A stretch of DNA of 6,413 nucleotides from Candidatus Micrarchaeia archaeon (GTDB lineage Archaea > Micrarchaeota > Micrarchaeia > Burarchaeales > JAVZCV01). This document shows positions 3,001-6,000 of this stretch, piece after piece. Where the stretch lies: positions 1 through 6,413 of the forward strand of contig JAVZCV010000036.1 of the NCBI GenBank assembly GCA_038874215.1. Reading direction: 5' to 3'. The position numbers were made by a program. Every line of letters begins with the position of its first letter. Within the stretch, counting starts at the first letter, position 1.

Positions 3001-6000
3001 TCCGCTGTAATAGCAGGGCCTACTATGTAAGATGTGTTGGGGGCAACATCTGATGCAAGCTTCTCCTCGTATTCGGAAAGTTTCTTTCTAATTTCGTAGA
3101 GGGATAGGATGAGTTTTGCGAGCTCTTTCATCTGCTCTATATCATCTGGCTCAAATTTAGCGCCGAGGCTCTTAGATGCGCTATTTGCTATCTCATGCGC
3201 TTTTTTTGAACCAACAACTTTTGCGAGTTCTTCTTCATCTATTGAATCCCTGTTTATCGCAAGAACGAGCTGTGGAAACTTCTCGCCCTCTGCCTTCAAT
3301 TCGGGGAAATAGAGGCCGTACCATTCTCGCAACCTTGTGCTGAGCAGGTTTATCGTTTTATCAAGCTCTGAGACTGCGCCGACTGTATGTATCAGAAGCC
3401 TGTCCCTCTCGCCAAGAGCTACTGAAACGGCTTCGCGAGTTCTTCTCAAAATCTCGTCTCGGTCCATTCACCCCACTCCATAAAGCGAAAAACGCCCAAC
3501 CAGTATATTTTGATAGAGTATTAAAATAATTTCTTGTTAGCTGAGCACATCTTATGAACTCTGGTATATCTCAATTGTTCCGTTTCTGTTTCTTATGAAA
3601 ATGTTGCGAAGCGTGTTATTGAGTGTATAGCCGTATTCGGTGCCGTTTTGCAGGTATGCGAAATTGGTGGGTGAAACTGTGATGTTTTTTGTGAGAATTG
3701 GCAAAGATATATCGGATTGGTTTTCTTCATAGTAAATATCAACCGAGCCAGACAGCGTGTTTATTACGAGCGTGTATGTCATGAAACCTTCTGCGCGTGA
3801 TGGGATGGTGAAGTTACGCATATAGCCGTCTCCCGCGCGCACGGCATTGTCTATTTCTTCCGCAACCTGAAAGCCCAATTCCTCGGCTATGCCTTTTGTC
3901 TGCATGCGCGCATCCCGCATTGCATCGCTTGTAAAGAGTGCTAACAAAACCACAAAAGCAAGCACAACAACGCCAAATATCACTAGGTATTCAACGGCAC
4001 TCTGAGCTCTATCCATCAAACCACTATCCAAAAGGAGGATAGACTACTACACAGCGAGGCGTAGAGGCTCCGCATGTGCCCGCATCGTCCATTGCTTCTA
4101 TTGTAAGGTGGTAGGTGCCGCTCTTGCTGAATCTTTCTGCATAAGTGCTATCAGCCCATTTTGTAGGGACTAATGTAAGAGCTACAACGTCGCTCTTACC
4201 CGAGGGTGTGAGCACTCTTATTACCACCTCTCTCCCGCTTGTTATTGATGAGCCTCCGCTCGCCTCCTGTCCTATTATTATTTTCTCCGTATTCTGCGGT
4301 ACTGAAATTAGAAGATTCATTTTTGCTGGCGGGCCCATAGCGCCGACTATATCTATCGCGTTCTTTATCCTTTTTGCCGTGTTTTCTGCTTGCGCTATCG
4401 CTATTTGCTGTGAGGAATTGCTCACTTGTAGATAAACCAAAAAGATGACAGGTAGTATTACGGCAACGGCAAACGCTATCGTTATCAGGAGTTCGGTGCT
4501 GACCTGTGCTTTTACCATACAATCCCAATGGTTATCGTTCCGTATAATATTAACCTTTTGCAGTCCAGATTTCGTTAAGCGCGGATTGCATTGCGTATAT
4601 GGTATAAAGTGTGAGAGGGGGTATTGCAAAAATAACCAATAACGCCCGTGTGTCAAGGCCGTTAAAGCCGCTGTCAATTGAGAGGTGGTCTATCTCGTTT
4701 AGCGTTTTCCAAACCACAAAAAGGTTTAATATGGGGATTATAAATACGAGCGTGCGGAGGAGGGGGTTGATATCAAGCGATGCATACTCTGAAATTTCTT
4801 TATTTATTTTATAATACCAGAATATAGCGTAGAGCCCAAAGGTTGAGATGATAAAGGCAATAACCCTCATTGGGTCAATCGGCTCTCCCACACAAACCCC
4901 ATGTATTCAAGGAGCGTTGTATTTTATATAATTTTGTTTATCATAATTGAAACATGATAACTGCGATAGTATTAATTGAAGCGGAGGTTGGTGCGGCAAT
5001 AGATGTCGCAGAGAAGGTTGCAGCATTACCAGAAGTGCGAGAAGCGTACACTGTTGCAGGAAATTACGATGTGGTGGCAATAGTATGCGTTAAGGAATTT
5101 GAGGAAACGAGCCGAGTAGTGGTTGGGAAGATATCAAACATACCGGGAGTGAAGAAAACAACGACGCTTTTTGCTTTTGAATGCTTCTCCAGATATGACG
5201 TTGAGAGGATGTGGGGCGTAGGATTTGAGGAGAAGATAAACCAAAAAACACCCTCGCAATAGTGGATGCTTGCAGAAACCGGATTAGAGGGGTTCGATTC
5301 CCTTCCCCAGCTTTAAACTTGAAAAGACGTCGTCTGGGCTGGGGTGGCAGAGTGGCTATGCGTCCGGCTGCAGAACAAAATTTTAGTGGGGGGCGTCATA
5401 TTGGATTTAATAGATATAGTAGAGGAGAAAAAAGGGTGGTTGGCGCTTGTTATTCCTGCACTTATATATTTGTCTTTCTACAACAGGAATGATCCATTAA
5501 TAATAACAACTTTGTTCTCATACGTAGTAGGGATTGCGTTTTTAACCATAGAGTTAGAGAAAATAAAGAAGGAGATAAGCAGAAATAAGGATAGATTGAA
5601 GGATGATATTCGCGTTTTGCAGTTTGTATTTTCTAAGAAATCAGTTCTTGCTTCAGGTATGTTGTTGCTAATATGTTGCCTCGTAACTTTATGGTATCTA
5701 TACCAGCGTATTTATGAATTTTGGGCTTACGCGTTTTTTATATCTCTTATTTTGGCATTTGTGTATGCGGTGATTATGGCAGTTGTTAAAGTTGGTGTTC
5801 GGAATATTAAGAAGATAGTAGATAATTCTAATAATAATCAATAGTTGCCGATTAGTAGAGCTTCGGCTTTTTGAAGAAGTTTTCTTTTTTGTTTAATGAA
5901 GACGCTGGTGGTGTGGATTTCGCTTTCTATCCGCTTTATGTCTGCAAGCAGATTGGCAGGTTTTGTCCCGCTTCTACGATTAATTACATTTGCGGGTGTT

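Follow-up and report, generated by a model that had tools for sequence, protein, structure and literature searches.

How does a cell make its tRNA-Cys when the gene for it is written 3' half first? The question is raised by a locus of a tiny hot-spring archaeon of the Micrarchaeota (DPANN), where the tRNA's 3' half (A38-U73, 5278-5312) stands upstream of the 5' half (G1-G37, 5338-5373) on the + strand, only a 25-nt spacer apart. Given this inverted order, the cell would have to cut and rejoin RNA to obtain a working tRNA. Rereading the window, by which we mean the whole 6,413-nucleotide stretch of DNA analysed, returned the same coordinates, strand and 37/38 junction as a preliminary description of the locus. 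Judging from sequence, we think it reasonably probable that the locus is a tRNA-Cys(GCA) gene that works in circularly permuted form and belongs to a DPANN archaeon. The features of the locus are as follows.

4923-4930, + strand: TTTATATA, 31 nt before the ATG of the AsnC-like gene
4954..5262, + strand: stand-alone AsnC/Lrp ligand-binding-domain gene, 102 aa (Pfam PF01037, E 9.7e-17; sequence read)
5260-5262, + strand: stop codon TAG of the AsnC-like gene, 15 nt before A38
5263..5277, + strand: leader; GCAG at 5272-5275 is the predicted 3' strand of a central 4-bp helix with C32 U33 G34 C35
5276-5277, + strand: A5276 and A5277, the first two bases of the predicted 3-nt bulge that ends in A38 and holds the 3' cut site
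5278..5312, + strand: tRNA-Cys 3' half, with A38, CCGGA (anticodon-stem 3' strand), variable UUAG, T arm AGGGG-UUCGAUU-CCCUU, CCCCAGC (acceptor 3' strand) and U73
5312-5319, + strand: TTTAAACT, made up of U73 and spacer bases, starting 26 nt before G1
5313..5337, + strand: intervening sequence of 25 nt from U73 to G1, with a small hairpin AGAC/GUCU at 5325-5335 in the fold
5338..5373, + strand: tRNA-Cys 5' half, with GCUGGGG (acceptor 5' strand), U8, D arm, UCCGG (anticodon-stem 5' strand) and loop C32 U33 G34 C35 A36 G37
5374..5384, + strand: trailer AACAAAAUUUU, with the predicted 5' cut site between G37 and A5374 and a T4 run at 5381-5384

Joined by script, the 35-nt 3' half and the 36-nt 5' half give a complete cloverleaf of 71 nt that ARAGORN calls tRNA-Cys(GCA) with two different paddings. 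The acceptor stem has seven of seven Watson-Crick pairs and the anticodon stem five of five, the T stem has four Watson-Crick pairs and one G-U, and the discriminator is U73; the cloverleaf, 7-bp acceptor stem, anticodon and discriminator of the preliminary description are all present. No CCA is encoded at the end of the 3' half. We take the anticodon GCA and the discriminator U73 to be identity elements of tRNA-Cys, and U73 is also found in 12 of the 12 relatives compared. Left unjoined, the window yields no tRNA by either ARAGORN or Rfam; the sole match in an Rfam scan of the window by E-value, to MicA at 1037-1110, is at chance level (E 3.2).

Likeness to the tRNA-Cys of relatives points the same way. 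With nhmmer profiles built solely from relatives' tRNA-Cys halves and run on the 1.13-Mb genome, the 5'-half profile matched 5338-5373 at E 5.1e-10 and the 3'-half profile matched 5278-5312 over profile positions 1-35 at E 2.6e-8, while the runner-up matches (E 0.94 and 0.007) were other tRNAs or noise. By these profile scores, the matches to both halves lie far beyond chance. The 5' half shares 34 of 36 bases with that of one relative (G018), and the joined tRNA shares 63 of 71 with the spliced tRNA-Cys of the same genome. Pair 4:69, G-C at the locus and A-T in 10 of the 12 relatives compared, is a two-sided change that spans both halves. Genes of the Cys-tRNA synthetase family are encoded in the genome.

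The assembly (1.13 Mb) is 91% complete, with about 9% missing, and within it profile searches found no second copy of either half. The earlier claim that there is no other tRNA-Cys therefore stands for the assembly, the one extra call being false. That call, made by ARAGORN -i, was a tRNA-Cys with a 436-nt intron at C3:15560-16092, which we reject: four pairs of its acceptor stem are G-U, its discriminator is A, its extra arm is long, and an open frame of 593 codons contains it completely. Among 17 tRNA-like T-arm sites in the genome (21 pattern matches), only tRNA-Cys has its matching 5' acceptor strand downstream; a looser genome-wide scan for other permuted tRNAs, with no T-arm requirement, gave 328 matches, mostly random.

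The 454-nt Logan contig over 4921-5375 cited in the preliminary description exists, and it represents a second haplotype in run X1, differing from the window by six substitutions and one deletion, all outside the tRNA parts. There are no differences in 5272-5375, versus seven in 4921-5271, and four of the five substitutions within the open reading frame fall at third codon positions. The second haplotype carries the halves in the same inverted order as the window, which makes misassembly unlikely. Another Logan contig, of 164 nt (record 7), shares 5346-5375 and then runs into unrelated sequence, so that the sample offers another, unexplained setting for the 5' half; its continuation was not found in the genome (up to 3 mismatches) or in genome_contigs (exact match).

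A permuted gene is expected to carry at its junction a BHB motif, strict or relaxed, made by leader and trailer. At the 3' site the arrangement is canonical, with the anticodon stem, the bulge A5276 A5277 A38 cut before A38, and a helix of GCAG (5272-5275) with C32-C35. Beyond the 5' site the only possible pair is A5375-U5271, with no outer helix, and in the minimum-energy fold A36 and G37 are paired instead with U5271 and U5270. As modelled, the motif is thus of the relaxed hBH type rather than canonical hBHBh'. The preliminary description had called it canonical, and of that description the CTGC/GCAG helix, the 3' bulge and the anticodon stem remain. In the minimum-energy fold of 5263-5392, both the anticodon stem and the T stem form, as do six of the seven acceptor pairs and the helix between leader and loop. 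GCAG stands exactly 2 nt before A38, matching the 3' end of relatives' 37/38 introns, at least six of nine of which, read by eye, end in the layout GCAG NN/A (the slash marking the cut). The best duplex between leader and trailer side, CCCUCGC at 5251-5257 with GUGGGGG at 5386-5392, has 7 bp, two of them G-U, lies 11-14 nt from the cut sites and was equalled by 37 of 1000 shuffles.

The enzymes that such a junction would call for are encoded. The splicing endonuclease EndA (G000:C2, L031:895-2049) is a single chain of 385 aa in which Pfam finds an N-terminal domain and two catalytic-domain stretches, and it matches PDB 4FZ2 at E 1.3e-138, with residues 5-385 set against 7-387 of that chain, end to end as expected of an epsilon2 enzyme of about 390 aa. 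The structure 4FZ2 is described as the ARMAN-2 enzyme (PMC12397907), and the account in PMC3239211 has the ARMAN-2 epsilon2 enzyme cutting a relaxed hBH motif in vitro. Genes for RtcB, RNase Z and the CCA enzyme are likewise present, as had been stated together with the epsilon2 EndA, and an RNase P RNA candidate scores 73 bits (E 1e-20), under the Rfam cut-off of 84.

We propose that a single transcript would run from the leader through the 3' half, the 25-nt spacer and the 5' half into the trailer. It would arise either at a weak promoter located within the last part of the AsnC-like gene or as read-through of transcription of that gene. The halves would fold into a cloverleaf, and the leader GCAG, according to the in silico fold, would pair with loop bases 32-35 to place the relaxed motif atop the anticodon stem. 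The broad-specificity epsilon2 splicing endonuclease would then cut after A5277 and after G37, and RtcB would ligate G37 to A38 to leave a 96-nt circle. RNase P and RNase Z could open this circle at G1 and U73, removing the spacer, and the CCA enzyme would add CCA to the tRNA-Cys.

The promoter signals at the locus are uninformative. Scored against an 8-position TATA consensus, which is matched at 6/8 or better at 3.4% of genome positions, the best TATA-like match upstream of the 3' half is 6/8 at -37 from A38, and matches of 6-7/8 lie at -26 and -20 before G1; neither half is preceded by a TATA-like match that goes beyond what chance would give. The TATA-like boxes of the 16 tRNA genes compared mostly lie at -39 to -29, and an unconstrained motif search in the 16 tRNA upstream regions found no positionally consistent promoter motif. 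Reading the sequence between the AsnC-like gene and the tRNA 3' half revealed no T run, which makes that gene a possible source of read-through transcription, and the two may be co-transcribed. A T4 run at 5381-5384, standing 8 nt after G37, is a possible archaeal terminator, a reading weakened because only 6 of the 16 other tRNA 3' ends have at least four T within 6 nt.

The locus could instead be, as the preliminary description itself allowed, a split tRNA whose halves are inverted by chance, with the 5' half transcribed from TTTAAACT and the 3' half from upstream, the two RNAs annealing through the tRNA body and being trans-spliced by EndA and RtcB in the manner of the adjacent tRNA-Asp halves of Aeropyrum pernix. 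This would need the same enzymes as the permuted route, adjacent halves with an internal promoter are described in PMC3218864, and TTTAAACT, 26 nt before G1, has a counterpart in one other tRNA gene of the genome, which carries TTTAAACG at -29. But a 6/8 match is what chance provides, and none of the 16 tRNA genes compared has its TATA-like box as near to +1 as TTTAAACT, which would place the start site within the tRNA. The interval from U73 to G1 contains no T-run terminator to end an upstream transcript, nor do leader and trailer form the long G+C-rich helix that split tRNAs typically have; we regard a split gene as unlikely. An artefact of assembly, whether a tandem repeat that was collapsed or two sequences joined as a chimera within a tRNA gene, might be suspected of a short contig (6.4 kb) from a metagenome bin, the more so as tRNA sequences are shared across organisms of the sample, where a different archaeon has a 42,968-nt contig that overlaps with 5345-5374. 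Against this, the same order appears in two assemblies of two haplotypes (the window and Logan record 4), the flanks share with the other half only the 7-mer TGCAGAA, far below any assembler's word length, the unique AsnC gene reaches to 15 nt before A38, and in composition (GC 43.3%, tetranucleotide correlation 0.93) the contig agrees with the rest of the genome. An artefact is thus very improbable.

The locus might also be a genuine but non-functional relic of rearrangement, with a working tRNA-Cys in the 9% of the genome that is not assembled, possibly along the path of the 164-nt Logan contig. Completeness of 91% leaves room for one, and record 7 does leave the 5' half after 5375 for a continuation that is not in the genome. 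Standard finders also miss most tRNAs here, only 16 being found by Rfam or ARAGORN, so that the absence of another tRNA-Cys is hard to prove. A relic, however, sits poorly with halves that show no damaging change and pair in all stems, with a cut-site helix in exact register, with the identity of two haplotypes across 5272-5375, and with a profile search that found no other half in 1.13 Mb. Contig depths of 7.59 versus 4.6 plus 3.0 would fit a divergent contig that extends the same permuted upstream part and does not represent a second locus, an argument only suggestive because the values are mean word depths. We consider a relic distinctly unlikely.

How might such a gene have arisen? Among 40 order- or class-level genomes, a set without any genome of the same family or genus, 21 tRNA-Cys loci were found, none of them permuted, in line with the earlier claim about relatives. 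Twenty of the 21 are colinear, and nine of those 20 carry an intron at 37/38, the ancestral state required by the origin that we consider most likely: an ancestor with a 37/38 intron in which part of the gene was duplicated in tandem and the outer exons were lost. Three relatives' tRNA-Cys genes (L005, L006 and L015) have a T-loop intron at 59/60. None of the five flanking proteins of the window is encoded within 1.5 kb of the relatives' tRNA-Cys genes, and the AsnC-like protein has no clear orthologue in the 40 relatives (at most 45% identity, mostly to longer proteins).

That no relative shares the arrangement weighs against our reading, and wider pattern searches added no shared case in the data covered: a strict permuted tRNA-Cys pattern had no matches in genome_contigs, and its nine matches in JGI metagenomes (metagenome_contigs) were all another tRNA followed by a normal tRNA-Cys, none of the nine permuted. 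A loose pattern gave no permuted case among the matches listed (at least 120) in genome_contigs. At least three of the loose matches (L073, L065 and L132) have complementary acceptor strands, and the one inspected, L073 from Methanosarcina, consists of two complete tandem tRNA-Cys genes and is not permuted.

Elsewhere in the genome lies an orphan, exon-precise copy of a tRNA-Thr 3' exon, which shows that this genome does undergo partial duplications of such a kind. Together with Logan record 7, in which other DNA directly follows G37 and AA, it would fit a bolder and rather doubtful reading, that the permutation is very young and possibly still polymorphic in the hot-spring population, in a lineage with living intermediates of the route by tandem duplication and then loss.

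The closest archaeal parallels are the permuted tRNAs of Thermofilum pendens, which likewise have the 3' part upstream on one strand, a BHB-type junction motif and single-copy essential genes, in an organism that, like this one, combines numerous disrupted tRNA genes with an endonuclease of broad specificity. They differ in having the junction at 59/60 in the T loop rather than at 37/38, spacers of 1 and 7 nt versus 25 nt, encoded CCA, and a promoter predicted upstream of the 3' part, where the locus has no convincing one; T. pendens is also a crenarchaeon with an (alpha-beta)2 EndA, not a member of the Micrarchaeota with an epsilon2 enzyme. In junction the locus is closer to the type II (37/38) permuted tRNA genes described from Cyanidioschyzon merolae, green algae and the Bigelowiella natans nucleomorph (Soma 2014, PMC3978253), which as reported there share the anticodon-loop position, the relaxed hBH motif, post-transcriptional addition of CCA and a similar spacer (1-74 bp versus 25 nt). 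Those genes are eukaryotic nuclear genes, transcribed by RNA polymerase III and processed by the Sen complex, with expression shown, whereas the locus is archaeal and known from sequence alone; opening of the circular intermediate by RNase P and tRNase Z is experimental for them and proposed here, and the genes described in that account have no sequence relationship to the locus.

Other systems share single elements. The split tRNA-Asp of Aeropyrum pernix, as presented in PMC3218864, has adjacent halves on the same strand joined at 37/38 and is regarded as having derived recently from a gene with an intron, as we propose for the locus, but it is colinear, its internal promoter is strong, and beside its canonical BHB stands a G+C-rich helix of 14 bp, none of which is seen at the locus. 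The ARMAN-2 pre-tRNA-Cys(GCA), with a 13-nt intron at 59/60 cut by epsilon2 EndA (Fujishima 2011, PMC3239211), matches the locus in phylum, tRNA, enzyme type and relaxed hBH motif but is, by that account, an ordinary colinear intron gene. The SRP RNA of Thermoproteus tenax (Plagens 2015, PMC4731332) is described as another archaeal permuted RNA gene, which arose when the genome was rearranged and which the tRNA splicing endonuclease repairs together with ligation; its final product is a circular RNA, whereas the circle at the locus would be an intermediate only.

Permuted tRNA genes are thus already known, and in the literature searched those of Archaea amount to two genes of one species, Thermofilum pendens, both at 59/60, with no other archaeal case cited in the papers covered from 2015 on. 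Within that literature, the locus is the first candidate from DPANN and, among Archaea, the first with its junction at 37/38. If it is what we propose, the phenomenon would extend to DPANN archaea and to the epsilon2 endonuclease, and Archaea would gain a 37/38 type so far known only from algae. The intron-bearing colinear relatives and the orphan tRNA-Thr 3' exon bear on the origin of permuted genes, and if the permutation were indeed young and polymorphic, tandem duplication followed by outer-exon loss would be a route from an essential intron-bearing gene to a permuted one, and the epsilon2 endonuclease could support an essential permuted gene without any outer helix. Standard tRNA finders miss the permuted gene, and genomes of this group can therefore be mis-scored as lacking tRNA-Cys. 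For the organism itself, a functional permuted gene would make the cutting and rejoining of RNA essential for cysteine decoding.

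The single convincing tRNA-Cys(GCA) gene of this genome (G000; 1.13 Mb in 38 contigs, 91% complete) lies on C36, all of which is the window, and is a real gene with inverted halves, almost certainly functional. Most likely it is circularly permuted and, by analogy with known systems, would be processed at a relaxed motif by an epsilon2 endonuclease.

Parts of the tRNA-Cys locus on contig C36
5278-5312, + strand: 3' half of tRNA-Cys, 35 nt (A38, CCGGA, UUAG, AGGGG-UUCGAUU-CCCUU, CCCCAGC, U73)
5313-5337, + strand: spacer between the halves, 25 nt
5338-5373, + strand: 5' half of tRNA-Cys, 36 nt (GCUGGGG, U8, D arm, UCCGG, CUGCAG)

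Neither ARAGORN nor an Rfam E-value scan reports any tRNA in the unjoined window, and the script-joined halves, 5' half before 3' half, are called as tRNA-Cys(GCA) by ARAGORN with two different paddings. All 7 acceptor-stem pairs and all 5 anticodon-stem pairs of the joined product are Watson-Crick; with U73, this upholds the cloverleaf proposed in the preliminary description. The joined sequence matches the spliced tRNA-Cys of the compared genome G018 at 63 of 71 positions. Pair 4:69 is G-C here versus A-T in 10 of 12 relatives, so both halves have changed on either side of one pair. Elsewhere on the contig, 2682-3467 (- strand) holds an ordinary gene with a Nop56/58-type snoRNA-binding domain (Pfam Nop, E 6e-59), unrelated to the tRNA, and near the right-hand contig end an argininosuccinate-lyase-like open frame contains a run of 10 Ns (6088-6097).

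Profiles for nhmmer made solely from relatives' tRNA-Cys halves (16 5' halves, 12 3' halves) recovered 5338-5373 (E 5.1e-10) and 5278-5312 (E 2.6e-8) as their sole convincing matches genome-wide. Among 21 sites found by scanning the genome for a T arm plus acceptor strand, 17 were tRNA-like, and only the one on C36 has a matching 5' acceptor strand downstream; a BLAST search with the region in its own genome returned, besides the self-match, three matches of 14-18 nt and nothing else. Profile searching of the 91%-complete assembly thus yielded no second tRNA-Cys, as had been claimed. Standard finders report only 16 tRNAs, and direct reading of C6:26068, C13:20247 and C33:8469 revealed tRNA genes hidden by T-loop or multiple introns, so the absence of another tRNA-Cys applies within the reach of profile searches in 91% of the genome. 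An ARAGORN call of an intron-containing tRNA-Cys at C3:15560-16092 was rejected for its 436-nt "intron," four acceptor G-U pairs, A discriminator, long extra arm, and position within a 593-codon open frame. By eye, C6:26068-26330 reads as the 5' part of a tRNA that has a GGA anticodon (Ser) and a long extra arm, with the matching acceptor strand about 200 nt on, which would be a very long T-arm insertion; C13:20247-20377, labeled tRNA-Ser(cga) by ARAGORN, reads as a tRNA-Thr(CGU) whose intron was misplaced.

Whether the inverted order might be a misassembly can be judged from Logan contigs of run X1, a hot-spring metagenome that contains 78% of sampled words from 4800-5800. The 454-nt contig said to bridge the halves does exist and covers 4921-5375 in the same order, from the end of an AsnC-like gene through leader, 3' half, and spacer to the 5' half. 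Its six substitutions and one deleted base relative to the window all lie upstream of 5272, and by our own arithmetic four of the five substitutions in the open reading frame fall at third codon positions, which marks the contig as a natural second haplotype rather than an error. The inverted order is agreed by two assemblies of two haplotypes; the flanks have only one 7-mer in common with the opposite half, and the composition of C36 agrees with the genome. Both haplotypes may come from the source sample of the genome and so do not count as independent ecological support. The main threat to the "only gene" claim is a 164-nt contig of the same run (depth 3), which follows the window over 5346-5375 (30 nt: the end of the 5' half plus AA) and then diverges from it for 134 nt; another contig, of 182 nt (depth 4.6), continues as the window does, and the incoming contig has a depth of 7.59. 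Searches of G000 and of the GTDB species genomes (genome_contigs) gave no match to the divergent continuation, and the 164-nt contig may represent a haplotype in which different DNA directly follows the 5' half, an additional copy of that half, or DNA of another organism.

At the junction, the leader ends in GGAUGCUU GCAG AA|A38. GCAG (5272-5275) pairs with C32 U33 G34 C35, and a 3-nt bulge of A5276, A5277, and A38 adjoins the anticodon stem, with the cut site two bases in; AA|A38 is a canonical 3' site. At least 6 of 9 37/38 introns of relatives end in GCAG NN|A (by eye), and the leader, judged by sequence, looks like the kept 3' end of such an intron. A canonical BHB (hBHBh') had been claimed, and this fails at the 5' site: beyond G37|A5374 the sole possible pair is A5375-U5271, and the minimum-energy structure has A36 paired with U5271 and G37 with U5270, a 6-bp helix whose ends are free. 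Because of that single pair and free-ended helix, we assign the motif to the relaxed hBH type. A distant leader-trailer duplex (5251-5257 with 5386-5392) was equaled or bettered in 37 of 1000 shuffles and deserves scant weight; the preliminary figure for such a duplex, obtained with a different setting, was 83 of 300. Moving the junction to 38/39 would leave the product unchanged, since A occupies both 5374 and 5278.

Of the processing enzymes named earlier, EndA, RtcB, RNase Z, and the CCA enzyme were borne out by homology. A 385-aa endonuclease on C2 aligns from end to end with PDB 4FZ2 (E 1.3e-138), the ARMAN-2 epsilon2 enzyme according to PMC12397907; in PMC3239211, this enzyme cut in vitro a strict motif as well as a relaxed one (hBH), the relaxed substrate being ARMAN-2 pre-tRNA-Cys. 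RtcB, RNase Z, and a CCA-adding enzyme are also encoded, as are two genes of the Cys-tRNA synthetase family, and a match to RNase P RNA reaches 73 bits, below the 84-bit cut-off. Epsilon2 EndA would cut at AA|A38 and G37|A, RtcB would close a circle of 96 nt, RNase P and RNase Z would excise the 25-nt spacer, and CCA would be added. The precursor fold in this route was computed in silico and the enzymes identified by homology; the remainder is proposed by analogy with the pathway demonstrated for permuted tRNAs of algae (PMC3978253).

The halves could instead be transcribed separately, as a split tRNA. TATA-like boxes were scored as matches out of 8 to a TATA consensus, and scores of at least 6/8 occur at 3.4% of all genome positions. 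The spacer contains TTTAAACT (6/8, at -26 from G1) and CTTGAAAA (7/8, at -20); 8 of 16 other tRNA genes have a box of at least 7/8, most starting at -39 to -29. Upstream of the 3' half the best match is 6/8. The stop of the AsnC-like gene (Pfam E 1e-16) and A38 are separated by 15 nt that include no T run, and TTTATATA lies 31 nt upstream of the gene's ATG. A T4 run lies 8 nt past G37, and T runs of at least four lie within 6 nt of only 6 of 16 other tRNA 3' ends. We lean toward a single precursor, since a transcript would meet nothing to end it from U73 to G1, the box in the spacer is too near G1, and there is no long G+C-rich helix as in split tRNAs.

Across 40 genomes from the same order or class, none from the same family or genus, the tRNA-Cys 5' half could be placed at 21 loci.

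Arrangement of tRNA-Cys at the 21 loci of relatives
9 of 21: colinear, no intron
9 of 21: colinear, 37/38 intron of 11 to 170 nt (one also with a T-loop intron)
2 of 21: colinear, T-loop intron only
1 of 21: contig end exactly at G37 (G011)

Colinearity of relatives, as described earlier, extends to 20 of these 21 loci, and none is permuted; two extra rows (L004, L028) were dropped as AT-rich chance matches. At the remaining locus (L003:1-36, on G011:C99 of an order-level relative), the 5' half has a normal TTTATA box upstream of it, and the contig end may be an assembly break inside an intron or reflect a split gene. At two loci of family f8 (L013 and L014, in G007 and G019), an apparent Cys-tRNA synthetase start follows the intron-less tRNA-Cys within about 10 nt, by DNA reading. 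The window's flanking genes show no synteny with relatives' tRNA-Cys, and no permuted tRNA-Cys appears among the exact-pattern matches listed for GTDB species genomes and JGI metagenomes. Permuted tRNA genes are already known in Thermofilum pendens, where the junction is at 59/60 rather than 37/38, and in algae, where it is at 37/38 as on C36 (PMC3978253). The literature searched, which leaves most subscription journals outside, contains no permuted tRNA gene in DPANN archaea and no archaeal permuted tRNA with a 37/38 junction.

"Tandem duplication, then loss of the outer exons" has been proposed for permuted genes (PMC3978253). Several observations are the states expected under such a route and fit it, short of proof here. 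The 37/38 intron is common among relatives, and the leader on C36 retains a 3' end resembling that of an intron. G000 also has a tRNA-Thr(UGU) with an anticodon-loop intron (C17:13082-13185), whose 36-nt 3' exon recurs unchanged 87 nt beyond the gene (13273-13308 = 13150-13185, identical from A38 to U73). This copy looks orphan because tRNA-Thr(CGU) at C13:20247 and tRNA-Thr(GGU) at C33:8469 each have their own 3' part. Finally, a Methanosarcina sp. (L073, NZ_VOUA01000006.1:100043-100354) carries two complete tandem tRNA-Cys(GCA) genes 27 nt apart, a layout that loss of the outer halves could turn into a permuted gene.
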